Positions 2,356-24,000 of a stretch of 24,000 bases of DNA are shown one piece after another. Position 1 is the first letter of the stretch, and each line of letters starts with the position of its first letter. The translations under genes were made by a program, and so were the position numbers. A model generated the notes under the pieces. It was not told the origin of the DNA, made no database searches, and saw only the letters and a program-made list of their open reading frames with translations. Where the stretch lies: NCBI GenBank assembly GCA_963720325.1, contig CAVRFE010000002.1, forward strand, positions 38,612 through 62,611, given 5' to 3'. Source of the DNA: an uncultured Actinomycetota bacterium. GTDB lineage: Bacteria; Actinomycetota; Actinomycetes; Propionibacteriales; Actinopolymorphaceae.

Positions 2356-2413
2356 CTGCGCAGCGGCGCGCCGAGCGACGCCACGCGCCCCGGGTCGCCG
2401 GAGTGTCCCAAGG

Positions 2414-3040: not shown

Positions 3041-3062
3041 CCTGATGTCCCAGCCGCTTCCG

Positions 3063-8400: not shown

Positions 8401-8604
8401 GCACGTCTGCTCCCTACGGTCGTAGCCTCAGCTTCTACCCACGCGTCGTCCGAGCCACGGCAGGATCGACACGGCCGAACAGAAACTTTCTGGGTACGAG
8501 TACGCGTGGCTTTGGGGCGACCAGGTCAGCTCGTCGCGGGCGTGAGGTGACCGGCGCAGGACTCGGGCGACCCCCCCGACTTCCGTCCGTCCGGGCACAC
8601 GACA

Positions 8605-9255
8605 TCAGCCCACGTCACCTCGGACAGGTCGACGCTGTTCGAGCCGGGCGCCGCGCAGCGTGGAGTTGATGAACCAGGTGCCGGTGAGGTCGGCACCCCG
8701 CAGGTCGGCGCGGGAGAGGTCGGACCGCTTGAACACGGCCGAGCTCAGGTTGGCGCCCTCGAGGTTCGCGCGGCGAAATCCGGCGTCGGTGAGGGTGGTC
8801 CCGTCGGCGAGCGAGGCGCGTCGCAGGTCGGCACGGGAAAGGTCCACGCCGTCCAGCATGGCGCCGTCGAGTACGGCATCGGACAGGTCGGCATCGGCAA
8901 GATCGACGTTGGCGAGCGTGGCGTTGCGAAGACTTGCCCGGTGCAGGTTGGCGCGGGTGAGCTTGATCTCGTCCAGGCGCTGGTCGTCCAGCGTGGCGCG
9001 TTCGAGGTTGGCGCACCGCCAGGGCCGGCGGGCGAGGTCGGACCCGGTCACCGTACGACCGGACAGGTTGGGACCGCTCGCGCCGCTGGGGCACGTCTTG
9101 CCGTGGGTCTCCTCGCCCAGGTCGCCCAGCGCGCCGCAACCGACCAGCAGGCTCGCGGCGAGCGTGGCAGCCAGTCCCGCCGCCAGACGCGTTGCCAGTC
9201 CCGTTGCCAGTCCCGTCGGCCAGTCCCGCGGCCAGCCGCCATCGTGCACGCGCAC
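8605..9255 (-). CDS. Pentapeptide-repeat lipoprotein
   Basis: About 30 consecutive A(D/N)LxX pentapeptides (ANLHRASLRNATLANVDLADADLSDAVLDGAMLDG...). The lipoprotein signal is LAAGLAATLAASLLVGC (lipobox LVGC). The preferred start is GTG 9255 (or 9249), with GAGGTG 4 nt upstream. The ORF-track extension to 9492 runs through palindromic, low-GC3 sequence. Confidence 0.75.
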   Translation of the reverse strand: MRVHDGGWPRDWPTGLATGLATRLAAGLAATLAASLLVGCGALGDLGEETHGKTCPSGASGPNLSGRTVTGSDLARRPWRCANLERATLDDQRLDEIKLTRANLHRASLRNATLANVDLADADLSDAVLDGAMLDGVDLSRADLRRASLADGTTLTDAGFRRANLEGANLSSAVFKRSDLSRADLRGADLTGTWFINSTLRGARLEQRRPVRGDVG

Positions 9256-9313
9256 CCGCCACCTCGCAGTCGCCCCCCGCCTGTTCCGTATCCGGCCCGA
9301 GCTGTCTGCCCGG

Positions 9314-9357
9314 CCTGCCCCGCCTGCCCGGCGAGTTGCCTGCCCCGCCTGCCCGGC
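9314..9357. repeat. Perfect 19-bp direct repeat CCTGCCCCGCCTGCCCGGC x2, separated by GAGTTG
   Basis: Copies at 9314-9332 and 9339-9357. The region lies 5' of the pentapeptide lipoprotein gene. Confidence 0.8.
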
Positions 9358-9380
9358 AGGCTCCGCCGGCCCGGCCTGCC

Positions 9381-9501
9381 CGCCTTGAGTTGTCAGAGGT
9401 GGGCCGCACCTGTCAGAGGTATTCCCGCATCTATGCGCGGATACCTCTGACAGGCGCGGGGCACGTCTGACAGGTGCGGGCACCTCTGACAACTCAGGCG
9501 C
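9381..9501. repeat. Nested palindrome cluster (five copies of a TGTCAGA(GG) core in F-F-R-R-R orientation); likely composite terminator of the ABC operon and/or an operator array
   Basis: The outer arms are a perfect 15-bp pair: GAGTTGTCAGAGGTG 9387-9401 and CACCTCTGACAACTC 9481-9495. They extend to 9381/9501 with one bulge. Inner pairings are 9409-9422 with 9441-9454 (14 bp) and 9404-9417 with 9466-9479 (14 bp). These two share the same left arm, so they are mutually exclusive. Confidence 0.8.
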
Positions 9502-10257
9502 TCACCCGACGGCTCGGCGGATGCGCCGCGTTCCGACGTACAGGCCGCCGATGGCGACCACCGCCGCCGCCAGCGTTCCGGCCACCAGCGTCCCCGCCGC
9601 GAAGTCGCCGTTGAACAAGGCTCGTTCGGCGTCGACGACGTACGTCAGCGGGTTGAACGCCGACAGCGTTCGCAGCCAGGCCGGTCCACCGTCGATCGGG
9701 AGCAGCATCCCCGCGAGGAGCAGGAGCGGGAAGATCAGCGTCTGCTGCACCGCCCAGAACATCCACTCCTTGTTGCCAGAGGCGAGTGCCAGCGTGTACG
9801 ACAAGGCACCGAGCCCGAGGCAGAACACGGCCAGGATCACTACGCCGAGCAGGGCGCCCACCAGGTTGAGGCGAAACCCGAACGGCAGGGTCGCGGCCAC
9901 CAGGATCGCCGCCTGGGCGAACATCGGGACGATCTCCTTGAGAGCCCGCCCGATGATCAGCGCTGGACGCCGGAGTGGGGTCACCAGCATCCGTTCGTGT
10001 GACCCGGTCTGGATCTCGAACAGCAGGTTGGCACCGGTCGTCGACGTACCGAACAGGCACGACATCACGATGATCCCGGGGACGAACCACTGCAGTGCCG
10101 AGTCACCGCCCACGACGGTCGGGAGCAAGGGTGCGAACAGCGCCAGGAAGACCAGCGGCTGCACCATCGTGAAGATTACCGAGAACGGGTCCCGGATCAC
10201 CGGGCGGAGTTCGCGGCTGAACACAGTCACGGTGTCGCTTAGCAGAGTGGTGGTCAT
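9502..10257 (-). CDS. ABC-2 type transporter permease (DrrB-like)
   Basis: ATG 10257 (MTTTLLSDTVTVFSRELRPVIRDPFSV...) is preceded by GAGGAG. The protein is about 251 aa with roughly six hydrophobic helices. The upstream part of ORF 9502..10608 is an out-of-frame overlap with the ATPase gene. Confidence 0.85.
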   Translation of the reverse strand: MTTTLLSDTVTVFSRELRPVIRDPFSVIFTMVQPLVFLALFAPLLPTVVGGDSALQWFVPGIIVMSCLFGTSTTGANLLFEIQTGSHERMLVTPLRRPALIIGRALKEIVPMFAQAAILVAATLPFGFRLNLVGALLGVVILAVFCLGLGALSYTLALASGNKEWMFWAVQQTLIFPLLLLAGMLLPIDGGPAWLRTLSAFNPLTYVVDAERALFNGDFAAGTLVAGTLAAAVVAIGGLYVGTRRIRRAVG

Positions 10258-11302
10258 GCGGCGTTCTCCTCGTTGCTCGAAGCGTCGGACTTGTCGGCCT
10301 CGGACCTGTCGGCGTCGGACTGTCGTCTGGCGCGGCCGTACCTTCGTCGCGCAGGCTGCGACCGGTGAGGTTGAGGAACACGTCGTCGAGCGTCGGCCGG
10401 GCGACCTCGACGCTCGCGACGGTGATGCCCTCGTCGTCCAGCCCTCGCAGCAACTTCGGCGCGAGCTGAGCGCCACCGTCGACCACGAGAGCCACGTGGG
10501 CGCCCACCCGCTCGACCTGCGCACCGGCGGCCAGTCCCAGCAGCCGAGGAACCGCTCGGTCGGCGTCGCCTTCCCGGTCGAACGTGAGACTGACGCGGTC
10601 ACCGGCATGGTCGGCCTTCAGCCGCGTCGGTGTGTCGTCGGCGATGAGCTGGCCGTGGTCGATCACGATGACTCGTTCGGCCAGCTGGTCGGCCTCGTCG
10701 AGGTAGTGGGTCGTCAGGACCATGGTCGTACCGTGCTCGGCGCGCAGCCGGCGCAGGTGGGCGTGCAGGTTGGCCCGGTTCTGCGGGTCGAGCCCGGTCG
10801 ACGGCTCGTCGAGGAACAGCAGGTCCGGAGCGTGGATCAGGCCCAGCGCGATGTCGAGCCGCCGCCGCTGACCACCCGACATCGACGACACCACCCGGTC
10901 GGCGACGCCGCTGAGGTCGAGCGAGTCGACCAGCTCGGCGGCGCGGGCGCGGGCGGCCCGGACGCTCAGCCCGTACGCACGACCCTGGCTGATCAGTTCG
11001 TCCCGGCCGCGCTGGCTGTGGCCGGCGCCGTTGCCCTGGCCGATGTACCCGATCCGGGCACGGACGGCGCGCGGGTTGGTCGCCACGTCGTACCCAGCGA
11101 CTTCAGCTGTGCCCGACGTGGGCGGGAGCAGCGTGGTGAGCATCCGGAGGGTGGTCGACTTGCCGGCGCCGTTCGGCCCGAGCAGGGCGACCAGCTCCCC
11201 TGCGTGAACGCTCAGGTCGAGATCGCGGACGGCCTCGACCCGCTCCTTCTTGACGGTGAAGTGCCTGGTCAGTCCGCGGGTGCGGATCATCGTTGTCTCC
11301 AT
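10254..11302 (-). CDS. ABC transporter ATP-binding protein (DrrA-like), with an apparent 1-nt deletion near the 3' end (the literal ORF runs on to 10103)
   Basis: Walker A GPNGAGKST, signature SGGQRRR, Walker B LLFLDEPSTGLD and H-loop TTHY are all present. The start is ATG 11302, or ATG 11290 with GGAGA upstream. After ...RDEGTAAPDD the literal frame has low GC3 and overlaps the permease gene by about 155 nt. Another frame has high GC3 and ends in an ATGA overlap with the permease start at 10254-10257. Confidence 0.8.
10281..10324 (-). repeat. 15-nt tandem repeat x3; the third unit is only 14 nt
   Basis: Plus-strand units are AGCGTCGGACTTGTC (10281-10295), GGCCTCGGACCTGTC (10296-10310) and GGCGTCGGAC-TGTC (10311-10324). 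On the coding strand they encode D[KR]S[DE]A repeats. Confidence 0.85.
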
Positions 11303-12413: not shown

Positions 12414-13460
12414 TCAGGGAGTGTTGCGACGCCAGATCATTGCGTAGTTGGTCGTGAAGATGCAGCCGCCGGCAATGGTGCACGACGACTTCACGGGGTA
12501 CGACTCGAAGGCCAGCGGCCGGTAGCCGGCCTGGTCGCCGTACTGCGCGCGATTCCACAGCAGCTCGTCGGCGTCCATGTCACGCACCTCGACGGTCGCG
12601 CGGCCACGCCGGTCGCTGAGCCAGACGCCGGAGTACTTGTTGTACGCGTCGTCGATCTGCGGCCAGGTGTTGTCGATCTTGTAGAGGGCGGCGTTCACAG
12701 CCACGATCCGGTGACTGTCCTTGAGCTCGTTGAACTTGTCCGCGAACGTGTCGGTCCGCAGCCCCCACCAGAGCTGCCAGCCGAGGTGGTCGATGTTCTT
12801 GACCCAGATCGTGGCGTAGCAGTGATTGCAGCCGGAGACGCTGTACTCCTCGACGTCGACGGGCATCCGGCCCTGGTCGCGCTGCGAGTTGGCGACACCC
12901 TGCATCTGCGCGGAGGTCTTGTCCTTGACCAGGACCGCGTCGGTGGTGCCCACGCCCTCCACCCAGATGGCGGCGTACTGCTTGCCGACACCGCTGACCT
13001 GGTACGCCTCGAAGTCGGCGATGCGCAGCCCGAACGCCTTGGCGAAGTTGTTCGACGCCTCGTACTCGTCGGGCGTCATGTCGTGCTGGACCATATAGCC
13101 GAGGCCAGTGGGCTTCTTCTGGAAGACCCCGCTGTACAGAGTGGCGTTCATGGTGAGGACCTCGAGGTCGAGGAGCATGTAGCCGTCGCCGGTCAGCCGG
13201 CTGTACTCGGCGTCGAAGCCCGCCTTGTCGCGCGGTGACACAAACCTCGTGTCCGTGTGGTTGGGATCAAAGATCGGCGTCGTCGGGCCGGGGTACGCCG
13301 ACGCCGACGGAGTTGCGATGGTCATCAGGCACGTCACTGCCATCGCCGCCGCCATGGTCATTGCCATCGTCAGCCGGCGCAGGCGGCCCAGCCGCGCACG
13401 GAGACGAGGCGGTGAGCCACCGCTGATGCGTTGGCTCTGCCTGCTCGAACTACCTGTCAT
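12414..13460 (-). CDS. Secreted tandem-repeat protein (five ~50-60 aa repeats each ending Y-[AS]-x-[IV]-[WF]); resembles the bacterial tandem repeat / polyglycine-hydrolase-like structural repeat
   Basis: The N-terminus is RLRARLGRLRRLTMAMTMAAAMAVTCLMTIATPSASA/YPG (signal peptide, possibly Tat-type RR). The repeat ends are LYSGVF, YAAIWV, YATIWV, YSGVWL and YAMIWR. The family assignment is from memory only. Confidence 0.7.
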   Translation of the reverse strand: MTGSSSRQSQRISGGSPPRLRARLGRLRRLTMAMTMAAAMAVTCLMTIATPSASAYPGPTTPIFDPNHTDTRFVSPRDKAGFDAEYSRLTGDGYMLLDLEVLTMNATLYSGVFQKKPTGLGYMVQHDMTPDEYEASNNFAKAFGLRIADFEAYQVSGVGKQYAAIWVEGVGTTDAVLVKDKTSAQMQGVANSQRDQGRMPVDVEEYSVSGCNHCYATIWVKNIDHLGWQLWWGLRTDTFADKFNELKDSHRIVAVNAALYKIDNTWPQIDDAYNKYSGVWLSDRRGRATVEVRDMDADELLWNRAQYGDQAGYRPLAFESYPVKSSCTIAGGCIFTTNYAMIWRRNTP

Positions 13461-13606
13461 GTCTCTCTCAATCCGTCGTCGCCGACCGTTTGTCGGCTGT
13501 GTGACCAGGCGCAGCGGTGTGAGAAAAGGCGACGGGCCCCCCTAAGGAGCGTCGAAGACTGCGCCCGACAGGCGATCATTTCGTCGCGAATTGCGGTTGC
13601 ATTGCA

Positions 13607-13630
13607 GTTCAATTGGACGACCGCGGGTAC
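13607..13630 (+). promoter_or_regulatory. Candidate SigB/SigF-type (group 3 stress sigma) promoter upstream of the stressosome-type operon
   Basis: GTTCAA (13607-12), a 12-nt spacer, then GGGTAC (13625-30), compared with the GTTTAA-N~14-GGGTAT consensus. The spacer is about 2 nt short. The site lies about 120 nt upstream of ATG 13753, in a lower-GC intergenic region. Confidence 0.3.
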
Positions 13631-13752
13631 AACGGACGAATGCGGCTACAGGCTGTCTGACACGAGTAACAAACAGTCCGGCGACGTTCTCCGAGGGCTA
13701 GGGGAAGCGCTAGCCGTCGGGGTATGAAGAAGACACGGGAGGAGGTCTGCCC

Positions 13753-14598
13753 ATGCCTACAGTGCCGGTCGATGCGCAAGATCCCGAGGAACGCCTTCGC
13801 GAGCTCGAGGCGATGCTGAACGCGATTACCGAATACCAGATCATCAAACTGGACGTGACCGGACACATCGCCAGCTGGAACCCCGGCGCGGAGGCCGTCC
13901 AGGGCTACACGGCCCACGAGGTCATCGGCCAGCCAGTGGCGATGTTCTACACCGACGAGGATCAGGCGGCCGGATTACCGCAGCGGGAGCTCCAGACCGC
14001 GCGCGACACGGGCCGGGTCGAGTTCGAGGGGTGGCGGGTCAGACGGGGCGGTGAGCGGTTCTGGTCCAGCGTGATCCTGGCACCGATCCGGGACGAGAGT
14101 GGCGAGGTGTCCGGGTTTGTGAAGGTCACCCGCGACGAGACCGAACGCCGCGAGCAGGAGGTACGCCTACAGCGCCAGCGGGACGAGATCCTGGAACTGT
14201 CCACGCCCGTCATCCAGGTGTGGGACAAGGTGCTCGTACTCCCGATCATCGGCACCCTCGACTCCCAGCGCGCGGCCCGACTCACCGAGAGCCTGCTGGA
14301 AAAGATCGCCGAGTCCCAGGGAGAAATCATCATTCTCGAGGTCAGTGGCGTTCCCACCATTGATACTCAAGTAGGTCAGCACCTCCTCAAAACCGTACAA
14401 GCGGCTGCACTGATGGGGACGGTGAGTATCTTGAGCGGGGTTCGGGCGGAGGTTGCCCAGTCGATGGTCAACCTCGGCGTCGATCTGGGTCAGCTGCGTT
14501 CGCGCAACACGTTGCGTGACGCACTACAGCTCGCATTGCAACTGCTCCGCGAGCGACCCGCGGTGGCATCACCGTCACTGCCCGGGGAGGGCCTGTGA
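13753..14598 (+). CDS. rsbR: RsbR-like stressosome sensor: N-terminal PAS domain + C-terminal STAS domain
   Basis: GGGAGGAGG lies 7 nt upstream of the ATG. The PAS region reads ITEYQIIKLDVTGHIASWNPGAEAVQGYTAHEVIGQPV... The STAS region reads ELSTPVIQVWDKVLVLPIIGTLDSQRA...LEVSGVPTIDTQVGQHL, with Ser/Thr at positions equivalent to the RsbR phospho-sites. Confidence 0.85.
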   Translation: MPTVPVDAQDPEERLRELEAMLNAITEYQIIKLDVTGHIASWNPGAEAVQGYTAHEVIGQPVAMFYTDEDQAAGLPQRELQTARDTGRVEFEGWRVRRGGERFWSSVILAPIRDESGEVSGFVKVTRDETERREQEVRLQRQRDEILELSTPVIQVWDKVLVLPIIGTLDSQRAARLTESLLEKIAESQGEIIILEVSGVPTIDTQVGQHLLKTVQAAALMGTVSILSGVRAEVAQSMVNLGVDLGQLRSRNTLRDALQLALQLLRERPAVASPSLPGEGL

Positions 14599-14966
14599 GC
14601 GAAGCCGCCGCGCCGATCCTTCGCATCGAAGACACCCTGCTGGTGAGCTTGCAAGGCGACCTTGACGACACCACGGTGATCCGGATCGAGGACCAGCTGA
14701 CCAAGGAGGTCGTGCGCACCCACGTCACCGGGATTCTGATCGACGTCAGCGGGCTGTCCGTGATCGACTCGTTCAGCGCCCGCGTGATCGCCCGGTTCAT
14801 CGGGATGGTCCGGCTGCTCGGATCGCAGGCGGCAGTGGTCGGCATCCAACCGGCGGTAGCCATCACCTTGGTCGAACTTGGCGTGCCCATGGGACACCTC
14901 GACACCGCGCTCAACGCCGAGCAGGGCGTGGCGCTGCTTCGGCGGCTGCGTCGTGAAGACACTTGA
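14595..14966 (+). CDS. rsbS: RsbS-like STAS-domain antagonist (stressosome scaffold)
   Basis: GTGA overlaps the upstream stop at 14595-14598. The protein is 123 aa: PILRIEDTLLVSLQGDLDD...ILIDVSGLSVIDSFSARVI. The IDSF serine is conserved. Confidence 0.85.
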   Translation: MSEAAAPILRIEDTLLVSLQGDLDDTTVIRIEDQLTKEVVRTHVTGILIDVSGLSVIDSFSARVIARFIGMVRLLGSQAAVVGIQPAVAITLVELGVPMGHLDTALNAEQGVALLRRLRREDT

Positions 14967-14976
14967 GCCAACCGAC

Positions 14977-15381
14977 ATGGATCAGGTCGAGCTGACGATC
15001 TCAACCGAGGCCGACCTGATAAGGGTGCGGCAGGTTCTGCGCGCCAACTCTCAGAGCGCCGGGCTCGGCCTGGTCGACGAGACAAAGCTCATCACCGCCG
15101 GAAGCGAGCTCGCCCGCAACATCCTGACGCACTCTGCCGCCTCCCGCGGCGAGCTGGTGGTCGAGCGGGTGCAGGCCGCCGGCAAGGTCGGGGTCAGGGC
15201 GACATTCTCCGACGAGGGACCGGGCATCGCCGATCTGGACCAGGCACTGACGGACGGATTCAGTACGACCGGGAGCCAGGGCATCGGGCTTCCCGGTGCC
15301 AGGCGTCTCGTGGACGAGATGCGGATCATGACGGCGGGCGGCTCCAGTACGACAGTGGTGATCGTCAAGTGGCGGCGATGA
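14977..15381 (+). CDS. rsbT: RsbT-like serine kinase / switch protein (HATPase_c family)
   Basis: The protein is 134 aa from ATG 14977; an alternative GTG 14953 overlaps rsbS. N-box is SELARNIL, G1 is DEGPGI and G2 is GIGLPG. Length and motif order match B. subtilis RsbT as I recall it. Confidence 0.85.
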   Translation: MDQVELTISTEADLIRVRQVLRANSQSAGLGLVDETKLITAGSELARNILTHSAASRGELVVERVQAAGKVGVRATFSDEGPGIADLDQALTDGFSTTGSQGIGLPGARRLVDEMRIMTAGGSSTTVVIVKWRR

Positions 15382-16373
15382 CGGAGGCGACACATAGGCT
15401 GCTCGCGATCCGGGCCGAGGAAGACGTCGGGGCACTTCGCCGGGCCGTCGGGCAGCTGGCCGAGGACATACCGACGATCCGCCGTGGCGACGCCGACCTT
15501 GCTGCGACCGAGTTGGCGACCAACCTCATCCGGCACGCGACCGCCGGCGGCTACGTCCTGTACCGCAGGGACGGCAACGCGGTCGAGCTGATCTCGGTCG
15601 ACCGCGGACCCGGCCTGAGTTCGGGGGACCTGCCGCGGCCGAAGGCCACACCCCCGGGCCTGGGCGCCGGTCTTGCCACCATCGAGCGGCTCGCTTCGGT
15701 CTTCGACTGCTACTCGACGAAGGACGGGACGGTGATCCTCGCGCGGCTTGGGACACCGCGTCCGGACCTGCCGGGGTCGTGGCGGAGCGGATCCCTGAAC
15801 GTGCCGCGGGGTGGCGATGGCGAGTCCGGTGACGGATCCGCGCTCGCCGCCGACCACCGTGCGGCGGCCGTCCTCGTCGACGGGTTGGGCCATGGGCCGG
15901 CGGCTGCGGCGGCCTCGCGCGCGGCGCTCTCGGAGTTCGACGAACGGGCCGCATCGGATCCCGTCGACTTCGTGCGGCGGGCCCACGCGGCGATGCGGAC
16001 GACCCGAGGCGGCGTGCTCGGCCTGTGCGTCATCGACCAGGCTCGGAACGAGGTGTCCTACGTCGGGGTCGGCAACATCGTCGGCAAGGTGATCATGCGC
16101 GACAGCCGCTACCGCCTGCTCGGGCGGGACGGGGTCCTCGGTACCGAGCTCGCGCCACCTCATCCCGACGCGGGCACCGGCCGCTGGGGCCCAGGAGCCA
16201 CGCTCGTGCTCACCTCCGACGGGGTCAACTCGATGTGGGACCCGGCGACGTACCCCGGACTCCTGGACCACGATCCCGTCGTGTTCGCCGCCGTCCTCCA
16301 CCGTGATCACGGTGAGCCCGCCGACGACTCGTCCGTGCTGGTCGTCCGCGACACGAGGGGTGCCGTCGGGTGA
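15378..16373 (+). CDS. Fusion of an RsbT/RsbW-like HATPase_c module to a PP2C (SpoIIE/RsbX-like) phosphatase
   Basis: ATGA overlaps the rsbT-like stop at 15378-15381. The N-terminal half carries ATELATNLIRHA, DRGPGL and GLGAGLATIERL. The C-terminal half carries GESGDG..., VLVDGLGHGPAAAAAS, LTSDGV and DDSSVLVVRD. Confidence 0.8.
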   Translation: MTEATHRLLAIRAEEDVGALRRAVGQLAEDIPTIRRGDADLAATELATNLIRHATAGGYVLYRRDGNAVELISVDRGPGLSSGDLPRPKATPPGLGAGLATIERLASVFDCYSTKDGTVILARLGTPRPDLPGSWRSGSLNVPRGGDGESGDGSALAADHRAAAVLVDGLGHGPAAAAASRAALSEFDERAASDPVDFVRRAHAAMRTTRGGVLGLCVIDQARNEVSYVGVGNIVGKVIMRDSRYRLLGRDGVLGTELAPPHPDAGTGRWGPGATLVLTSDGVNSMWDPATYPGLLDHDPVVFAAVLHRDHGEPADDSSVLVVRDTRGAVG

Positions 16374-17638
16374 GCGGGCGGCGACGACCACAACGACAGG
16401 ACGGGTCAGCCGACAAACCCGCCCCGGCCAGACCGGCACCCGCGGACAAGACCGCGGGTGCGGACAAGACCGCGAGTGCGGACAAGACGGCGGCGGCGGA
16501 AAGACGCGCGGCGGCTGCCTCGACACGGCAGCGCAAGGACCAGGAACTCCAGGCCAAGGACCGCCAGATCGCCGAACTCCATCGCGAGTTCGAGGAGACC
16601 AACCGTGGCCTGATCGCGCTGCACGCCGAACTCGACGACGCCCGACAGGCCGAGGCCCGCCTCGCGGCGATCGTCCAGTCGTCGAACGACGCGATGTTCT
16701 CGATGACGCCGCAGAAGGTCATCCAGACCTGGAACGCCGGAGCGGAAGGCCTGCTCGGGTACTCCGCGGCTCAGATCGTCGGCCGCCCGATCGAGGTTCT
16801 GGTCGCGGGTGAGTCGCCGCCACAGTTCGACTCGGTACTGGAACGGATCCGTGCCGGTGAGCGCGCCGAGTCCTACGACACCCGCTGGCGGCGTGGCGAC
16901 GGATCGCTGACCGACGTGGTGGTCCGGGTGGCGGCGATGTGGGACGCGTCGGGTGCGCTGCTCGGCTTCTCCGTGGTGGCCAGCGACATCACCAATCGCC
17001 TACGTACGCAGGCGGAGTTGGCCGCGGCTCGCGCCGACTTCGAGGTGTCGGAGGACCGGGACCGCATTGCGCGGGACCTGCAGGACATGGTGATCCAGCG
17101 CGTCTTCCGGGCCGGTATGGCACTGGAGGGCATCGCCAGCCTGCTCAACCGTCCGGAGGCGGTCCTGCAGGTGGAGGCGGTGGTCGGCGAGTTGGACCTG
17201 ACGATCCAGGAGCTTCGGACGACCATCTTCGCCTTGCACGGCCGTCCGCAGAAGTCGGCGAGCCTGCGGGCGCAGCTGCTGGAGGCCGCGAGTGCGGCAC
17301 ATCCCGGTCTGGGCTTCGCTCCCGACGTGAGGTTCGACGGTCCGGTAGACGCCGCGGTCCCTGACGACGTCGCCCTTCGCGTGGTCGCCGTGGTCGAGGA
17401 AGCCCTGTCCAACATCGCCCGACACTCGCACGCGTCCACGACAGAGGTGTCGGTTCGCGCGGCTGAAGAGTTGGTGCTGACGGTCATGGACAACGGCGAG
17501 GACATGGACCGGGAAGCGATCGCCAGTGGACTGCGGAGCATCCGGGACCACGTGCATGCCCTCGGCGGGGCGTTCGAGGTGGTGAGCCAGTCCGACGGCG
17601 GTACCCGGATCGAGGCCCGGCTGCCCCTGTCGAGGTGA
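16370..17638 (+). CDS. PAS + HisKA_3-like + HATPase_c protein (DevS/NarX-type kinase core) lacking the phospho-acceptor His; probable pseudo-histidine kinase
   Basis: GTGA overlaps the upstream stop at 16370-16373. The N-terminus holds ADK-rich repeats and a coiled coil (ELQAKDRQIAELHREFEETNRGLIALHAELDD). The PAS region reads IVQSSNDAMFSM...WNAGAEGLLGYSAAQIVGRPI. The H-box reads DRIARDLQDMVIQRVF (Q where H is expected). N-box is EEALSNIARHS and G1 is DNGED. Confidence 0.8.
   Translation: MSGRRRPQRQDGSADKPAPARPAPADKTAGADKTASADKTAAAERRAAAASTRQRKDQELQAKDRQIAELHREFEETNRGLIALHAELDDARQAEARLAAIVQSSNDAMFSMTPQKVIQTWNAGAEGLLGYSAAQIVGRPIEVLVAGESPPQFDSVLERIRAGERAESYDTRWRRGDGSLTDVVVRVAAMWDASGALLGFSVVASDITNRLRTQAELAAARADFEVSEDRDRIARDLQDMVIQRVFRAGMALEGIASLLNRPEAVLQVEAVVGELDLTIQELRTTIFALHGRPQKSASLRAQLLEAASAAHPGLGFAPDVRFDGPVDAAVPDDVALRVVAVVEEALSNIARHSHASTTEVSVRAAEELVLTVMDNGEDMDREAIASGLRSIRDHVHALGGAFEVVSQSDGGTRIEARLPLSR
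16442..16495 (+). repeat. In-frame 18-nt tandem repeat x3 (GCGGACAAGACCGCGGGT and variants) encoding ADKTAG/ADKTAS/ADKTAA
   Basis: Units at 16442-16459, 16460-16477 and 16478-16495. A more diverged ADKPAP unit precedes them. Confidence 0.85.
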
Positions 17639-17648
17639 CATGTGTGGA

Positions 17649-17676
17649 GGTATCCCGGCAGCTTCGCCGGGATACC
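17649..17676. terminator. Hairpin 1 between convergent operons
   Basis: GGTATCCCGGC (17649-59), loop AGCTTC, then GCCGGGATACC (17666-76). The 11-bp stem is perfect and begins 11 nt after the TGA at 17638. Confidence 0.55.
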
Positions 17677-17681
17677 CCCGA

Positions 17682-17709
17682 CAGGTCGGCCGGGGACGTG
17701 GCCGACCTG
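17682..17709. terminator. Hairpin 2 between convergent operons
   Basis: CAGGTCGGCC (17682-91), loop GGGGACGT, then GGCCGACCTG (17700-09). The 10-bp stem is perfect and ends 13 nt before the monooxygenase stop at 17722. Confidence 0.55.
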
Positions 17710-17721
17710 GTCCGTAGAACC

Positions 17722-18993
17722 TCAGGCGGCCGCCGCGCGGCTGGCGATGTGCTCCACGATGTGGGCGGCATCATCGCCGACGCCGGCGAAGACCGACGAC
17801 GGTTCGGAGTGCAGCCAGGGCAGCCCGATCGCGTAGAGCCCGGGGTGGATCGTCACGCCGCGCTCGTGCCGCGGGTACCCCCACTCGTCGAACACCGGCA
17901 GGTCGACCCAACCGAAGTCGAGCTGGTAGCCGGTCGCCCACACGACCGAGCGGATCCCGGCGGCGTCGAGGTCGAGATCGGTGACGGTGGGCGGCGTGAA
18001 CGTGTCGTACCGCCGATCGTCCAGTGGCGCGTCGATGCCCGCGGCCTCGATGTACGCGTCGAACAGCGGCTTGAACTCCTGGTCGAACCCTGACTCAGCG
18101 AACGCCAACCGCTCGGCGAGATCGGCACTGAACTGCACCCGGGCGCCGTCTGCTGCCTCCAACCTCCCGTACAGATGAACGCCGTCCCGGGCGAACCGGC
18201 GCAGGCTGAGGTCGTGGCCACCATCCTTGCCGGACACGTGCGGGTCGCACCCGAACCGCGCCGCCGGCGACGGCAGGTCGGCGACCGTCGGGAAGTGGAT
18301 GCCCACCTCGGCACCGTGCACGACCGTCTGCATCAGCCAGTAGATGAGGTCCTTTCCGCGGTAGCGGCGTGGCGCGGCCGGACACATCCCGACCGCGAGG
18401 TGCACGTCACGCCCCGACTGGTACAGCTCCTCGGCGATCTGCGCACCGGACTGGCCGGTGCCGACGACGAGGACGCCACCCTCGACGAGTTGGGACGGTC
18501 GCCGGTAGTCGCTGGAGTGCAGCTGGTTGATGTGGTCGGGCAGCTGGTCAGCCGGAGACGGGATCTTCGGCTTCTGGTAGGCGCCGGTCGCGAGCACGAC
18601 GTTGCGCGCCACGTAGGTCTGCCCCTGGTCTGTGTGCGCCTCGAGCCGGCCGACGGACGAGGCCAGCCTGCGGACGCTGGTGCCGAGCCGCACCGGGGCA
18701 TCGAAGGAACCGGCGTACTCCTGGACGTACTTCACCACGTCGTCACGGGCCATGAACCCGTCGGGATCGGGTCCGTCGTACTCCATGCCGGGCAGCCGGA
18801 GGTGGAAGTTGGGTGCGACCAGCGTCAGGCTGTCCCACCGGTCCTGCCAGCTGCCGCCGAGTTGGTTGCGGCGTTCGAGGACGAGGTGGTCGACGCCTGC
18901 CTTGGTGAGCCAGTAGCTCGTCGCCAGTCCGGCCTGTCCGCCACCGATCACCAGGGTGTCGACGATCTCGCGGCCATCTTCAGTTGTGCTCAT
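17722..18993 (-). CDS. FAD/NAD(P)-dependent flavin monooxygenase-type oxidoreductase (COG2072-like)
   Basis: The FAD motif is LVIGGGQAGLA and the second dinucleotide motif is VLVVGTGQSGAQIAEEL; also ATGY. The ATG at 18993 overlaps the upstream stop (ATGA). Confidence 0.8.
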   Translation of the reverse strand: MSTTEDGREIVDTLVIGGGQAGLATSYWLTKAGVDHLVLERRNQLGGSWQDRWDSLTLVAPNFHLRLPGMEYDGPDPDGFMARDDVVKYVQEYAGSFDAPVRLGTSVRRLASSVGRLEAHTDQGQTYVARNVVLATGAYQKPKIPSPADQLPDHINQLHSSDYRRPSQLVEGGVLVVGTGQSGAQIAEELYQSGRDVHLAVGMCPAAPRRYRGKDLIYWLMQTVVHGAEVGIHFPTVADLPSPAARFGCDPHVSGKDGGHDLSLRRFARDGVHLYGRLEAADGARVQFSADLAERLAFAESGFDQEFKPLFDAYIEAAGIDAPLDDRRYDTFTPPTVTDLDLDAAGIRSVVWATGYQLDFGWVDLPVFDEWGYPRHERGVTIHPGLYAIGLPWLHSEPSSVFAGVGDDAAHIVEHIASRAAAA

Positions 18994-19907
18994 CGTGCGG
19001 TCCTTTCCTGACCAGTGCGGTCGAGAGCAGTCCGCAGTGTGCGGACGAACGCGTCGGGCGCTTCCATGGGCGGGTCGTCGCCGCAGTCCTCGATCACGTA
19101 CAACGGCCAGGCATGCCGGGCGCTCGCGGCCTCGGCGATCGTCAGCGGCGTAGCGAGGTCGTGCCGGCCCCAGATGAGCGCGGTCGGGGTGGTGATGCGG
19201 ACCAGCCCGTCCGCCGGTATCGGCGGTCCACCCATCTCGGCCATCAGGACCTCGAGCGACGCCTGGACGCTCGGCGTCTGGATCCGCTCGACGTTGTACG
19301 CCTGGAACGCCGGCCAGTGCGCACCCATGTCGCCGCGCAGCCGGTCGAGGTCGGACGCGCAGTGCTGCCAGAGCCGGTCGTGGGTGTCGTCGTTGGGCCG
19401 GCCGAGGAACTCGTGCAGCGCGAAACCGAACTGGGGCGCAGGATCGAACGGCACCAGGCCGAGCGAGTCGACCAGGACCACACCGGCAAGCGTGCCGTCG
19501 GGAACGCTGCTGGCGAAGCGGGCGGCGATCGCGCCGCCGAGGGCGAAGCCGACCAGGACGGGTGGAGCGGCACAGGTCTGCTCGACGAGTTCGCCGAGCC
19601 AGGTCAGGACTCGGTCGCCGGTCAGGTCCGCTTCGGTGAGGTGCGATTCACCCTGGCCGGGCAGGTCCGGTACGACGACTCGATGGGTCGTCACCAGATC
19701 GGGGATCACCCGCATCCAGTGGGTGGCGTTTCCGCCCGGGCCGTGCAGGAGGATCATCGGTGCGCCGGCGCCGCCTTCCAGAACGGCGGTCGAGACGCCC
19801 GCGAGCTGGAGACGGCGCTGGGTGACCGGCAGGCCGGCCAGCAGTTGGTCGCGGGCTCCGACTGTTGGCGGGGCCTCAGGTGTCGACGTGTCGATCGGAC
19901 TCATCAT
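18990..19907 (-). CDS. Alpha/beta-hydrolase-fold protein (meta-cleavage-product hydrolase-like) with substituted catalytic Ser and His
   Basis: AGGAG lies upstream of ATGATG 19907/19904. The oxyanion region is LLHGPGGNATHW. The nucleophile elbow reads LVGFALGGA (Ala codon GCC at 19542-19544). The C-terminal motif reads IEDCGDDPPMEAPDAF (Asp codon GAC at 19077-19079 where His is expected). Confidence 0.8.
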   Translation of the reverse strand: MMSPIDTSTPEAPPTVGARDQLLAGLPVTQRRLQLAGVSTAVLEGGAGAPMILLHGPGGNATHWMRVIPDLVTTHRVVVPDLPGQGESHLTEADLTGDRVLTWLGELVEQTCAAPPVLVGFALGGAIAARFASSVPDGTLAGVVLVDSLGLVPFDPAPQFGFALHEFLGRPNDDTHDRLWQHCASDLDRLRGDMGAHWPAFQAYNVERIQTPSVQASLEVLMAEMGGPPIPADGLVRITTPTALIWGRHDLATPLTIAEAASARHAWPLYVIEDCGDDPPMEAPDAFVRTLRTALDRTGQERTAR

Positions 19908-20056
19908 CGGGTGCTCCTGGTGGTTCTGTTGGTACCTGCGACGCTAAGGAGTACGTCGACCTCGGCGCGTCGGGAGAAACACGCACATCGCCGGGCAGCG
20001 GCGGCATGGGTATTTCTGTGTAGCTTGCGCGAACCACCCGAGTCGGCCGGGGCGGG

Positions 20057-21709
20057 TTAGACCAGACCGTTCTCGTACGCGTAGGCAGTCGCGGCGGCGC
20101 GGGAGGAAAGTCCGAGTTTGGTGAAGATGTTGCTGATGTGTCGCGCCACGGTCTTCTCGCTGAGGAACAGGTCGGCGGCGATGGCGCGGTTGCTCTTGCC
20201 GGCGGCAACGAGGCGGATCACCTGCACCTCGCGCGCTGTCAACCCGCGCTTGGCACCGGCGTCCGGGCCGAGCTGGGTCAGCGACTCGACGCGGGCGAGG
20301 TCGGGTCCTGCTTCGAGCTGACCGAAGACCAGCCGGGCGGCGTCGAGTTCCATCTCGGCGGTGTCGGTGTCGCGGAGTTGGCGGCACGCCAGGGCTACCA
20401 GGACCCTCGCCCTGGCCGCCTCGTACGGCGCGTCCAGCCCGTGCCAGACCCTCCAGGCGTGCCGTAACGGTGCGAGCGCCGACGTGGCGTCGCCTTCGGC
20501 GAGCAGCACCGCGCCGGCGGCGTGGTCGGCCATCGCCTGGACCGGCGGGGCGCCCAACCCCGCTGCGATCCTGGCCAGTCCGTCGGCGGCGCCGCGGGCC
20601 TGCGGTACGTCATCGTTGGCCAGACTGATCTCCACGTACGCCGACAGCAGCCTGGCGCGCAGGACCCCTTCCGGGGCCTCCTCCAACGCTCGCCGGAGCG
20701 CCGCCTCGGCCGCCTCGAGCTGGCCCTGCGCGAGTCGCAGCAGCGCCAGTCCCGGTTGCGGCTGTCGTCCGTACTGGCTGGCCTGCCGGTAGTCGTGTTC
20801 GGCCGCGGCGAAGTCTCCGCGCAACCGGTGCAGCTCGCCCTGCTGGTAGAGCGCGTCCGCGACGGCCGGCTGACCGGGTGGGTGGGACAGCAAGGTGTAG
20901 GCGCGTTGGGCGGCGTCGACCGCGCCGTGCCACTCGCCGTGCAGCTGCAGGATCTCCGAACGGTGTACGAGGCACGCACCCCGGTAGGGAACCAGGTCGG
21001 GCTGGGAGAGGCACCAGTTGTTCAGTGCCGCGGTCCACTCCCGCGCCCGGCTCAGGTCGAAGGTCTCCTGGCAGGCCCGAATCACCGCGCAGTAGACGAT
21101 TCCGACCACGATCGGGGACAGGTCGCCGGCCGTGGCGGCCACCATCACCTCGTCCAGGAGCTCGCGTCCGCCGGTGATGTCGCCACGCTCGATCAGCGCC
21201 TGTCCGCGCCCTAGCCGGCCGAACGCCAACAGGTCGGCGTCGCCGAACCGGGTACCGATGGCAACCGTCTCATCGAACAGCGCGTCGCTGCTGTCGGCGT
21301 TCTCGTCGAGCCGCACCAGCGCCTCGGGCACTATCAGGTAGCCGCGTTCAACGCAGTCTCGTCCGCACTCGTCCAGCACCCGGCGCGCTCGGGCCAGCCA
21401 GCCGCCGCTGCGCGCCATCTCGCCGCGCAGCAGCAGCAGGAGTGCCAACCAGAACCCGCAGCGTGCCGCGCGCGCGGGCTGGTCCAGGCCGACGAAGAGG
21501 TGATGGGCGCGTGCCCACAGGTCGAAGCTCTCGGCGTCCTTGCCGACCAGGTAGGCGGTCACCGCCAGCCGCTCGACGTCGGCAGCCGGCAGCGGTGACG
21601 CCTCGTCCGCGGCCACCAGCTGGGTGTACGCGGCACCCCACGCCTGCCGGTCGAAGGAGTTCCGCCCACGTTCGAGCGTGTCGGAACCATCGGCAGGTGC
21701 TGCGGTCAT
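20057..21709 (-). CDS. LuxR-family transcriptional regulator with a large N-terminal TPR-like helical domain (no ATPase module)
   Basis: The C-terminal HTH reads [51 protein letters not shown]. About 480 aa of helical repeats lie upstream of it. Confidence 0.85.
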
Positions 21710-21772
21710 ACAGCGGAAACTACCTCGACAACTGCAGGTGCGGGCAAAGACGCGAGCACCGGCCGGCTGCCG

Positions 21773-22102
21773 TCAGCCTGGGTGCACCGTGACGAGTTTT
21801 TCGAACACGAACTCGTGCTTGAGGAAGGAGACGTCGTACTCGTGACCCGGATACGGCGGCATGAGCGGCGCGCACTGGATCAGCCGCCAGCCGTCCTGCA
21901 GTGCCGCGACCCCGGTCTCGTACGGCGGCTCGTCGCTGTCGCCCGTCGTCGGAGTGGTCCGGGCGGTCCCGTCGTAGGACGACCAGCCGACGACACCGCC
22001 GTCGAGTGCGGAGGTGTTGAGGTAGAGGACGAGGACCTGCTGGCGGACGACCAGACCGGTCCCGGCGTCGGTTGCTCGCGCGCTTTGCGTGTCGGTGCTC
22101 AT
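21773..22102 (-). CDS. Small hypothetical protein (109 aa), translationally coupled to the PhyH-family gene
   Basis: An ATGA overlap at 22099-22102 couples it to the upstream gene. GC3 is high throughout. I recognised no domain. Confidence 0.6.
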   Translation of the reverse strand: MSTDTQSARATDAGTGLVVRQQVLVLYLNTSALDGGVVGWSSYDGTARTTPTTGDSDEPPYETGVAALQDGWRLIQCAPLMPPYPGHEYDVSFLKHEFVFEKLVTVHPG

Positions 22103-22983
22103 GGGGTCACCCTTCGCTGCGTGGCGGCCGTGACGACCCGCCGCGGACGGTTGCTCACGCGGGTGGCCCAGTAGTCGAGGTCGAAGGTGTCGTCACCGGT
22201 CAGAGCCCGCCACATCATGATCCGGTTGTAGAACTCCAGGCGCGCGGTGGCGTTCTCGTACCACGGGAAGCGGGTGCGCAGCTCGTCGATCACTGCCGGG
22301 TCGGCCAGGTCGTCGGTGTTCCACAGCCGGATCTGCCGCACGGTCGGGTTGAACCTGATCTTGAACATGTAGCGCTTGATGTCGCTGTCGTTGCGCCGGC
22401 CGCCGTGCCAGATGCCGTGGTGGACGATCACGACGGTGCCGGCGGGACACACGAGACGGTTCTGGCCGCGGAGGTTCTGGTAGCGCCCCGTGTCGGTCTC
22501 GTTGATCCGCCGCAGGTGGCTGCCCGGGACGCTCAGGGTGCCGCCCATCTCGAGGGTCACGTCCTGCGGGTAGTACATGAGCTGGACGTCGAACGCGTCC
22601 GTGCGTACGTCGATGATCGCGTCGCCATGCAGGTGCTGGGCCTGGCCCTGGTGCGGCTGGCGGATGTGGACCGCGTGGTGGTCGATGGTCGGATCTGGAC
22701 CGACCAGGCTGTGCAGGGCGCCGGCGATGTCGGGCAGTTCGACGAGGCGACGGGCGAAGGAACCCTCGGGATATGTCTCCTCGACGGGGGTCCCGTAGGG
22801 CGCGGCCGGGATGCCGGCCTCGAAGACGTCGATCGCCTGCGCGTTCATCTCGTCGGGGACAACCGCGTCCATGCGGACCAGCCCGTGCGCGACGAAGCGG
22901 GCCATCTGGACCGATGTCAGCAGGTGCTTCCGGGCAGGGTGGCGGGGGTCTGCGGATCCCCTCTCCACGAGATACTGGCTCAT
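22099..22983 (-). CDS. Phytanoyl-CoA dioxygenase (PhyH) family Fe(II)/2-oxoglutarate-dependent oxygenase
   Basis: The facial-triad candidates are HGD within QHLHGDAIID and the distal His in VVIVHHGIWHGG; also RYMFKIRF. The start is ATG 22983; the ORF track gives GTG 22992. Confidence 0.8.
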   Translation of the reverse strand: MSQYLVERGSADPRHPARKHLLTSVQMARFVAHGLVRMDAVVPDEMNAQAIDVFEAGIPAAPYGTPVEETYPEGSFARRLVELPDIAGALHSLVGPDPTIDHHAVHIRQPHQGQAQHLHGDAIIDVRTDAFDVQLMYYPQDVTLEMGGTLSVPGSHLRRINETDTGRYQNLRGQNRLVCPAGTVVIVHHGIWHGGRRNDSDIKRYMFKIRFNPTVRQIRLWNTDDLADPAVIDELRTRFPWYENATARLEFYNRIMMWRALTGDDTFDLDYWATRVSNRPRRVVTAATQRRVTP

Positions 22984-22997
22984 ACCCACCACGCTAG

Positions 22998-23031
22998 GTT
23001 GGGGTGCCCAACGAATGCGTGGGTTGCATTC
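22998..23031. promoter_or_regulatory. Two adjacent short palindromes in the PhyH/AraC divergent spacer (candidate operators)
   Basis: GTTGGG-gtg-CCCAAC (22998-23012) and GAATGC-gtgggtt-GCATTC (23013-23031). Confidence 0.3.
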
Positions 23032-23054
23032 ACCAATACTGGTAGTTTTTCACC

Positions 23055-23873
23055 ATGGGTCCAGATCATGGTGACCCTCGCCAACGTGTCGTCGTACGCC
23101 TCGACACCCCGCCGGAGGTCGTCAGTCTCGGTGTCGGCGTACACGGGGTGACCCGTCGGCGGGACGTCTTCCGGCTGCCCGACATGTGGCAGCTCCACCT
23201 CTACAGCTACCGCGCCGACCTCACGATCGACGGAGTCCGGCACGCCATCGGGCCGGGATACGTGAGCCTGGTGCCTCCGGGCGTGGTGGTCGAGTACCAC
23301 TACCGCGGCCGCTCGGAGCACCTGTACGCCCACGTCCGACTGCCGCGGGTCGGCGAAGCGCGGCGGGGGCGGCCATCCACCGGCATCCGCGTACCGACCG
23401 TGCAGGACGGTGGTGCGGAGACGCCGCAGCTGACCGACCTCCTGCAGCAGGCGATCGCGGCCTGGCCGCGTACACCCGCCCGGGCGGTCGCGGAGGTGTG
23501 GTCGACGCTGTGGCGGGTGGTTCAGCTGGGGGCCCGGGACGAGGCCGGTCGCCCGCACGCGGCCGTGGCGACGGCGATCGCGTACGTCGAGTCGAACCTC
23601 GCCGGACCGCTCGCCGTACCCGACATCGCACGGATCGCGGGCGTCTCGCACAACCACCTGACCCGGCTGTTCCGGGCCGAGACCGGCGGCACGGTGGTGG
23701 CACACATCCGGCGCCGCCGGCTGGAACGGGCGCGGCACCTGTTGCGGGAGTCAACCCTGTCGATCCCCACGGTGGCGGCCTCGGTGGGGATCGGAGACCT
23801 GCAGGCGTTCAACAAGGCGTGCCGGCGAGAGCTCGGCGCCTCCCCGCGAGCTGTGCGTGCCGGCGACCGTTGA
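23055..23873 (+). CDS. AraC-family transcriptional regulator (cupin-like N-terminal domain + AraC HTH)
   Basis: The C-terminal double HTH reads AIAYVESNLAGPLAVPDIARIAGVSHNHLTRLFRAETGGTVVAHIRRRRLERARHLLRESTLSIPTVAASVGIGDLQAFNKACRRELGASPRAVR. Confidence 0.85.
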   Translation: MGPDHGDPRQRVVVRLDTPPEVVSLGVGVHGVTRRRDVFRLPDMWQLHLYSYRADLTIDGVRHAIGPGYVSLVPPGVVVEYHYRGRSEHLYAHVRLPRVGEARRGRPSTGIRVPTVQDGGAETPQLTDLLQQAIAAWPRTPARAVAEVWSTLWRVVQLGARDEAGRPHAAVATAIAYVESNLAGPLAVPDIARIAGVSHNHLTRLFRAETGGTVVAHIRRRRLERARHLLRESTLSIPTVAASVGIGDLQAFNKACRRELGASPRAVRAGDR

Positions 23874-24000
23874 TCAACGTCTGGGGATGTCCACCGGAAT
23901 CTCGACCGCGATCTCGCCGCCGAGGTGCGCGCCGGACAGGCGAAGCTCGTCGCCGCTCCAGAACCGACCCGCGTCGTACCAGCTCGGCCGCCGACCCGCC
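23874..24000 (-). CDS. 3' end of an unidentified gene running in from beyond the window
   Basis: The minus-strand frame is open to the window edge with high GC3. It reads ...AGRRPSWYDAGRFWSGDELRLSGAHLGGEIAVEIPVDIPRR and stops at TGA (complement of 23874-23876). It is too short to assign a function. Confidence 0.4.
   Translation of the reverse strand, partial: AGRRPSWYDAGRFWSGDELRLSGAHLGGEIAVEIPVDIPRR

Follow-up and report, generated by a model that had tools for sequence, protein, structure and literature searches.

A stressosome operon with a predicted kinase-dead, DevS-like output protein in an uncultured actinobacterium

The DNA analysed here, which we call the window, comprises 24,000 nucleotides (nt) of contig CAVRFE010000002.1 (assembly GCA_963720325.1) from an uncultured actinobacterium of the Actinopolymorphaceae. 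Between positions 13753 and 17638 of its forward strand lie five co-directional genes, designated R, S, T, X and K in their order (Table 1). They encode an RsbR-like co-antagonist, an RsbS-like protein, an RsbT-like serine kinase, a fusion of an ATPase with a PP2C phosphatase, and a protein built like a sensor kinase; their GC content at third codon positions (0.79-0.87) is of the coding type. The cassette as such is known and widespread. The kinase-dead output protein found in the lineage of the window is the new part.

All five genes had been described, in an earlier sequence-only reading of this DNA, as chained by overlapping start and stop codons. This holds at three junctions, where four-base overlaps were confirmed (GTGA at 14595 between R and S, ATGA at 15378 between T and X, GTGA at 16370 between X and K), and probably fails at the fourth. 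GTG 14953, which would make T overlap S, is an alternative start, less likely than ATG 14977, which lies 11 nt past the stop codon of S. The latter is preferred because it gives the 134-amino-acid length called in the orthologous loci L089, L090 and L172, and because T then aligns from residue 2 with Bacillus subtilis RsbT. The S/T junction is more likely a short gap than an overlap.

Table 1. Features of the R-S-T-X-K locus and its borders, in window coordinates
Feature	Position	Strand	Details
Upstream intergenic region	13461..13752	+	292 nt; ribosome-binding site GGGAGGAGG a few bases 5' of ATG 13753, read from the sequence
R, RsbR-like co-antagonist	13753..14598	+	281 aa; PAS ~13801-14154, STAS ~14206-14487
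S, RsbS-like single STAS protein	14595..14966	+	123 aa; Ser59 in IDSF; start overlaps R stop (GTGA)
T, RsbT-like serine kinase	14977..15381	+	134 aa; N-box ELARN, G1 DEGPG, G2 GIGLPG
X, fusion protein	15378..16373	+	331 aa; RsbW/T-like HATPase_c_2 15378-15752, RsbX-type PP2C 15795-16370; start overlaps T stop (ATGA)
K, sensor-kinase-like protein, predicted kinase-dead	16370..17638	+	422 aa; start overlaps X stop (GTGA)
Parts of K		+	disordered N-terminus; long helix 16475-16681; PAS 16682-16987; HisKA_3 DHp 16991-17242; CA 17264-17626
18-nt tandem repeat, 3.9 copies	16442..16511	+	codes for ADKTAG/ADKTAS/ADKTAA, within the disordered N-terminus
TNRGLIALH, core of the helix motif conserved in the N-terminal part of K	16598..16624	+	helix omega 0.09
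Gln238 codon CAG at the phospho-acceptor His position	17081..17083	+	same Gln in L089 and L003
G1 box of the K CA domain, degenerate (DNGEDM)	17489..17506	+	family consensus DNGRGL/M
Two hairpins	17646..17709		14-nt arms 17646-17679; 10-nt perfect arms 17682-17709; both without a T tract

The domains of R, S, T, X and K were assigned with Pfam, all above the gathering scores, and the STAS, HATPase_c_2, SpoIIE, HisKA_3 and PAS domains that the sequence-only reading had put forward are all recovered. In R, the matches are PAS_9 (1e-14) and STAS (1.8e-13). The solved structure nearest to its STAS domain is Vibrio vulnificus RsbR (7o0i_B, 1.6e-30), with Listeria RsbR also matching, and Ser171 (LDSQRA) and Thr205 (IDTQVG) fall on the phosphorylated positions of solved RsbR proteins. 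A blue-light receptor of the LOV/YtvA kind was rejected as a reading of R, because its YtvA_fam score of 122.6 stays below the cut-off of 250 and R contains no cysteine, hence not the flavin-binding Cys of the NCRFLQ motif either. S (Pfam STAS 4e-15, 55.9 bits) is nearest to B. subtilis RsbS (6jhk, 5e-27); IDSF stands opposite IDSF and Ser59 is kept. T matches HATPase_c (6e-10) and HATPase_c_2 (1e-8), with N-box, G1 and G2 in place. Its 41% identity to B. subtilis RsbT over the full length is a lead, not a database result; a sequence search of the PDB with T matched no solved RsbT. The gene order R-S-T is kept in all related loci that include the upstream sequence. The likeness to the stressosome of B. 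subtilis and Listeria monocytogenes extends from this order and the phosphorylation sites to the RsbX-type PP2C of X. Unlike those systems, the window locus has no RsbU, RsbV, RsbW or SigB; its phosphatase directly follows T and has an ATPase domain in addition, R has PAS as its sensor and not a non-heme globin, and the output resembles a sensor kinase.

X joins an RsbW/T-like HATPase_c_2 domain (4.9e-10) to a PP2C domain (SpoIIE, 1.7e-11), just as had been supposed from the sequence alone. By sequence, the PP2C domain is nearest to MtX of Moorella thermoacetica (3zt9, E 7e-11) and then to B. subtilis RsbX (3w40, E 2e-6). By fold, an AlphaFold2 (AF2) model of X (pLDDT 87.8, pTM 0.87) gives TM scores of 0.90 and 0.79 to the same two structures, so that the domain is predicted to be of the RsbX/MtX type rather than the RsbU type. 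The departure from single-domain RsbX consists in the N-terminal HATPase_c_2 domain of about 125 amino acids, which is fused and conserved. Indeed, almost all of the 120 best homologues of X carry the fusion, with the ATP motifs ELATN, DRGPG and GLGAG and the metal-ligand motifs DGLGHG, SDG and DD of the PP2C at least 95% conserved among them. A profile search of 1.84 billion representatives returned at least 1,482 proteins at E<=1e-30 (counted as clusters at 50% identity), nearly all of them full-length and two-domain. The fused kinase-phosphatase therefore represents a family that is large and conserved, and it is no peculiarity of the locus. Two known systems come close to parts of X. In Moorella (MtR/MtS/MtT/MtX with MtG; Quin et al. 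2012), MtX is the nearest solved structure to the PP2C domain, the phosphatase likewise comes after T, and the output is not a sigma factor; MtX, however, lacks the ATPase domain, and MtG combines RsbU_N with a GGDEF (diguanylate cyclase) output. SypE of Vibrio fischeri (PMC10120452) unites an N-terminal RsbW-type serine kinase and a C-terminal PP2C in one polypeptide and acts on a STAS substrate, SypA. The resemblance is one of principle only: SypE has a central REC domain that X lacks, and X belongs to a stressosome operon, where its presumed substrates are RsbR and RsbS.

K consists of a PAS domain (1.8e-15), a HisKA_3 domain (PF07730; 5e-7, 30.6 bits against a cut-off of 24) and HATPase_c (2.6e-10), preceded by a helix. 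In the AF2 model, this helix spans residues 36-104 (about 69 residues) and is followed by PAS, the two helices of the dimerization and histidine phosphotransfer domain (DHp; 208-256 and 263-291) and the catalytic ATP-binding domain (CA). The N-terminal repeat segment ahead of the helix is poorly conserved among relatives, and L089 has a GKRAV repeat at the same place; GTG 16370 is the sole start codon 5' of the helix. The CA domain is nearest to Mycobacterium tuberculosis DevS (3zxo, 7e-14) and DosT (3zxq), and DHp and CA together are of the DevS type, also by the names given at JGI. K is therefore comparable with the DevS/DosT-DevR system of M. tuberculosis and OsdK-OsdR of Streptomyces coelicolor, except that it has the helix and PAS in place of two GAF domains, that its input is a stressosome and that the K of the window lacks the His.

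That the last gene encodes a PAS-HisKA_3 protein without its phospho-acceptor was already noticed in the sequence-only reading. Comparison of K with its 120 best homologues confirms it: 114 of these 121 family members have the His of the H-box RIARDLHD, where K has Gln238. The exceptions have Gln (the window, a copy 99% identical to it, P0002, P0088 and P0104) or Arg (P0083 and P0092), and a single transversion would turn the CAG of Gln238 into a codon for His (CAC or CAT). In a neighbour-joining tree, the window, L089 (74.5% identical) and P0002 from L003 (59%) form an exclusive Gln clade. The other non-His proteins fall elsewhere, which implies that the phospho-acceptor His was probably lost at least three times in the family.

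The ATP site is also affected. The N-box of K is present (EEALSN), and its G1 box reads DNGED instead of DNGRG, so the CA domain is not intact; moreover, G1 has decayed differently in each member of the clade (DNGEDM in the window, DNGQSPD in L089, ENSTGSG in L003). Because K of the window clade has lost both its phospho-acceptor and the G1 box that binds ATP, it is predicted with confidence to be unable to autophosphorylate. At the same time, the DxxxQ motif right beside the lost His (D239-M-V-I-Q243) is intact. In HisKA_3 kinases, DxxxQ adjoining the H-box His serves as the phosphatase motif (PMC3510030, PMC11502775).

How selection has acted on K was judged from omega, the ratio of non-synonymous to synonymous rates (dN and dS), computed by the Nei-Gojobori method (NG86) for the window against L089; at a dS of about 0.6-1.1, with high GC and biased codon use, such values are rough. 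They are 0.03 for R, 0.03 for S, 0.13 for T, 0.28 for X and 0.25 for K as a whole. Within K, they divide the protein into two parts: helix (0.09), PAS (0.17), DHp (0.11) and the linker (0.08) on the one hand, CA (0.36) and its ATP lid (0.44) on the other. Along the branches leading to L003, which are longer, the lid values rise to 1.28 and 0.98, at or near neutrality. This is not how the His-bearing relatives behave. The window clade has a dN(lid)/dN(DHp) of about 5 and a dN(CA)/dN(DHp) of about 3; among His-bearing pairs, the first ratio is 0.4-1.8 (nine pairs) and the second 1.1-1.6 (eight of these, the pair L001-L009 being left out of this comparison for its signs of frameshift). To judge from this pattern, K is no pseudogene; it would have given up ATP-dependent catalysis and kept its helix, its sensor and its dimerization and partner surface.

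The alternative that has to be weighed here is that K is a decaying relic, and that R-S-T-X alone is the functional unit, its signal leaving through an unlinked partner (a helix-bearing kinase or a PP2C) or through the kinase domain of X. The relaxed CA domain and ATP lid fit such decay. So do the loci L090 and L091, which keep R-S-T-X and have lost K, and the non-His proteins P0104 (L084/L085) and P0092 (L086), orphan K-like genes without R-S-T-X, one of which adjoins an IS110 transposase. The sister strain L172 (ENA ERZ25039516 contig_3807), about 99% identical and aligned to window positions 13546-24000, adds that the only two intragenic 1-nt indels in 10.5 kb both fall in K (window 16426 and 17518), and that K is the most diverged gene there, with 34 mismatches in 1,269 nt as compared with 4 in 846 for R. 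We nevertheless rejected these frameshifts as proof of pseudogenization: 23 of the changes in K are synonymous and 11 non-synonymous in the window frame, and they remain mostly synonymous even past the frameshift, which suggests assembly errors over decay. The indels may be such errors or very recent decay. Against a relic stand also the low omega (0.08-0.17) of helix, PAS, DHp and linker, the open reading frame of K, intact in three taxa down to 59% identity, and the retained GTGA coupling of K to X. We therefore consider it unlikely that K is a mere remnant.

The cassette itself is not confined to this lineage. A survey of neighbourhoods found the five-gene order R-S-T-X-K again in Streptomyces, Planomonospora, an Actinomycetota metagenome-assembled genome and several metagenome contigs (L001, L004-L009, L089, L092 and L093). 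A scan of metagenomes with the X profile gave 80 loci, in essentially all of which, where upstream sequence is available, the order is R-S-T-X. We surveyed 60 loci in all (metagenome loci, the window and related loci, each with at least 900 nt after X); a kinase directly follows X in at least 48 of them, and the outputs of at least 45 loci other than the window are His-bearing kinases. Scanning genomes with the K alignment, we found at least six true orthologues among the 80 loci listed. The rest are generic HisKA_3 kinases and served solely as a source of NarL-type regulator queries. The module can also stand without a linked output: in L090 and L091 (ENA ERZ25039530; genes at about 8376-11098), the gene that comes after X encodes Pyridox_ox_2.

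Modules of the rsbRSTX type with many kinds of output, sensor kinases included, have been described before (PMC9237108, PMC12143880). In mycobacteria, work on an RsbRST complex has dealt with SigF as the output (PMC8115616), and S. coelicolor has a five-gene operon of RsbR/RsbS-like proteins that begins at SCO7324 (PMC7244524). The nearest precedent in layout is rsbRSTX with VvD1/VvD2 of V. vulnificus (Heinz et al. 2022, PMC9237108), where four genes in the order RSTX directly precede a PAS-containing two-component protein and a sigma factor is absent. In Vibrio, however, RsbR is globin-coupled, RsbX is a single-domain PP2C, and the outputs belong to other kinase families, none of them kinase-dead; the link from RsbT to the kinase is unresolved there as well (PMC9237108). 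In the literature examined, which did not extend to the review of Pane-Farre et al. (2005), an ATPase-PP2C RsbX, the helix described below and a kinase-dead stressosome output are not described.

What the kinases behind X have in common is a short helical motif around TNRG, EL-E/D-x-TN-R/Q/K-G-V/L-V/I-AL-Y/H-AEL, which occurs in the open reading frame downstream of X in 44 of the 60 surveyed loci. It is present in all orthologues of K, and four more K orthologues and L111 carry a variant of it. In 34 loci, the helix is followed by a canonical HisKA H-box (SHEFRTP), and in 8 by PAS-HisKA_3. The short outputs of this kind, about 290 amino acids long, consist of helix, HisKA and HATPase; the long ones, about 590-720 amino acids, have an RsbT-like HATPase_c_2 domain before the helix and often receiver domains (REC) behind. 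About half of the helix-bearing proteins carry this fusion, and the fused HATPase_c_2 is nearer to RsbT than to the N-terminal domain of X. The fusion family has 3,638 matches, in metagenome-assembled genomes of Acidobacteriota, Planctomycetota, Pseudomonadota and Actinomycetota.

Examples of the long form are L106 (3980-6106), L159 (3110-4882) and about 20 similar loci, which encode RsbT-like HATPase_c_2, TNRG helix, HisKA, HATPase_c and one or two REC domains directly after R-S-T-X. Such hybrid kinases are annotated merely as 'ATP-binding protein'.

The helix is the only element common to HisKA and HisKA_3 outputs. Because it is the sole shared element, and because it is so often covalently joined to an RsbT-like domain, we infer that it is the site where RsbT contacts or acts on the output kinase. 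The proposal that RsbT works on dimeric helical linkers (PMC12143880) fits this idea.

The surroundings of K orthologues suggest where such a kinase may send its signal. In Streptomyces sp. B5E4 (L005, 11174-14088), the genes directly behind a His-bearing K encode a NarL-type regulator (convergent), a GAF-GAF-HisKA_3 kinase of the DevS kind and a cNMP-binding protein, so that here the K orthologue stands beside a DevS/DevR-like pair. In Streptomyces NBC_01451 (L001), the operon has genes for Usp, nitroreductase and cNMP-binding proteins around it. Gene types of this sort constitute the DevR/OsdR dormancy regulon (PMC7244524). His-bearing K orthologues are usually orphans as well. Considering the DevS-type domains together with these neighbours, the K family looks like an additional, stressosome-fed DevS-type kinase for a DevR-like regulator. 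In actinobacteria, orphan kinases whose regulators are encoded elsewhere are routine.

The sequence-only reading had found no effector near the operon, and this is borne out: the 24-kb window contains no REC, sigma or anti-sigma gene. Its further statement, that the exit of the signal is unexplained by known wiring, goes too far, because R-S-T-X followed by a kinase is common, two-component outputs are described and the K family is DevS-like; it holds only for the output of the kinase-dead variant in the window and its two closest relatives. The sole GerE helix-turn-helix domain (HTH) in the window belongs to a 550-aa MalT-like TPR protein (20057-21709, reverse strand) with a C-terminal GerE/LuxR HTH. 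It was rejected as a partner of K for want of a receiver domain and because the syntenic relative L003 lacks it, together with the neighbouring monooxygenase and hydrolase genes; in L003, PhyH and AraC come sooner after K.

We propose the following for the cassette and for the window clade. By the paradigm of Bacillus, Listeria and Vibrio, the STAS-domain core of a stressosome would be formed by PAS-RsbR and RsbS and would retain the RsbT kinase. A signal at the non-LOV PAS domain of RsbR would then cause RsbT to phosphorylate Ser59 of RsbS and Ser171 and Thr205 of RsbR and to leave the core, and the RsbX-type PP2C of X would reset the system by stripping those phosphates. The N-terminal RsbW/T-like ATPase of X may dock X on unphosphorylated STAS domains, or it may work as a counteracting kinase, as in SypE. 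Across the family, free RsbT would engage the long N-terminal helix of K and thus switch the DevS-like histidine kinase, which presumably signals to a NarL/DevR-type regulator encoded elsewhere. In the window clade, K would be a stressosome-gated pseudokinase: it would either dephosphorylate or sequester a NarL-type regulator, or else modulate a DevS-like paralogue. This means that the stressosome would set a negative or gating arm instead of a phosphorylating one. We read K in this way because its catalytic residues are lost while helix, PAS and DHp are under selection and DxxxQ is intact. Its most likely role is that of a gated phosphatase or binding partner of a NarL/DevR-type regulator; modulation of a paralogous kinase, in the style of ChrS-HrrS, is the second possibility. 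To this explanation as a whole, a widespread R-S-T-X and helix-kinase cassette with a gated pseudokinase in the window, we give a probability of roughly 0.55.

Several points weigh against this explanation. The window contains no regulator, sigma factor or second DevS-like kinase that could be the target of K. Binding of RsbT to the helix of K is deduced from the comparison of output kinases; no RsbU_N domain matched in K at E<=0.01, the model showing a single long helix before PAS, and in Vibrio, binding between VvRsbT and VvD1 was not detected (Heinz et al., PMC9237108). The nearest R-S-T-X relatives after L089, namely L090 and L091, are K-less, which means that K may be dispensable. The five genes probably form one operon, a view for which co-transcription is read from their overlapping or close spacing. 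The roughness of the omega values counts here too. Finally, phosphatase activity of a HisKA_3 protein with Gln at the His site is carried over from what is known of other kinases.

A more far-reaching version of the explanation can be formulated. It holds that the helix is a general docking or transmission element for RsbT-type control of histidine kinases in thousands of cassettes outside Bacillus, that the His-less K of this clade is a selected, stressosome-gated regulator of a NarL/DevR-type pathway, acting only as a phosphatase or purely allosterically, and that the His was lost independently at least three times. With all three parts taken together, we put this forward as tentative and on balance doubtful.

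A different possibility is that K is no enzyme at all and serves as a scaffold or substrate, which RsbT or the kinase domain of X binds or phosphorylates on Ser/Thr, and which relays the signal allosterically via a canonical kinase, as DivL and ChrS-HrrS do. Pseudokinases such as DivL of Caulobacter, ChrS_CA-fs of Corynebacterium (PMC9491836) and PsmA of Streptomyces (PMC12963549) indeed resemble K, in that they keep the fold of a histidine kinase without autokinase activity, and the known ones act by protein-protein contacts; for ChrS/HrrS, HisKA_3 pseudokinase-kinase heterodimers are documented, and in K the DHp dimerization helices and PAS are conserved. None of the three, however, is a stressosome output, and ChrS_CA-fs is laboratory-derived. 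In addition, the window shows no kinase paralogous to K, a conserved Ser/Thr acceptor site was not found in K, and a scaffold has no need of the DxxxQ motif that K has retained. A pure scaffold thus seems to us somewhat less probable even than a relic. Least probable of all is the view taken in the sequence-only reading, that fused X and His-less K make a new, self-contained stressosome circuit without transcriptional effector: both proteins are real and 24 kb contain no effector gene, but the cassette is common, with ordinary His-bearing kinases as its usual outputs, two-component outputs of rsbRSTX are on record, and a distant regulator is nothing unusual for an actinobacterial orphan kinase.

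At the borders of the locus, the operon promoter is presumed to lie in the upstream intergenic region. Consensus scans for sigma-70 promoters and terminators gave no match, which is uninformative in actinobacterial sequence of about 70% GC, and an Rfam search, likewise without a match, says little at this composition. On the other side, the next gene (17722-18993, flavin monooxygenase) is convergent with K across a gap of 84 nt, as the sequence-only reading had it, and the two hairpins between them are candidate bidirectional terminators.

Further genes of the window may be recorded. Divergent from the operon across the 292 nt lies a gene for a predicted secreted protein with BTRD1 (polyglycine-hydrolase-like) structural repeats (12414-13460, reverse strand). 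At 658-2355 on the forward strand, a 565-aa protein has two matched stretches of Methyltransf_19, an S-adenosylmethionine-dependent methyltransferase family (E 4e-162). A gene replacement at the level of strains lies some 4 kb upstream of R: the place occupied in the window by a pentapeptide-repeat gene (8605-9492) holds, in the sister strain L172, genes for an ECF-like sigma factor (Sigma70_r2/r4_2/DUF6596) and for YCII (2063-3664, corresponding to window ~8400-9500), flanked by the VWA and ABC-2 genes.

The locus and its relatives bear on stressosome signalling beyond the SigB cascade of Bacillus and on the link from RsbT to a downstream kinase, which is at issue in Vibrio as well. The short helix common to the kinases after R-S-T-X, so often fused to an RsbT-like domain, offers a candidate contact site that is directly testable. 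The fusion of a reset phosphatase with a second ATPase in a very large family suggests that the reset step is itself regulated. A natural kinase-dead output under selection separates kinase-independent function from phosphotransfer; if K is truly a gated phosphatase or a scaffold, bacterial histidine pseudokinases would extend to stress-sensing hubs.

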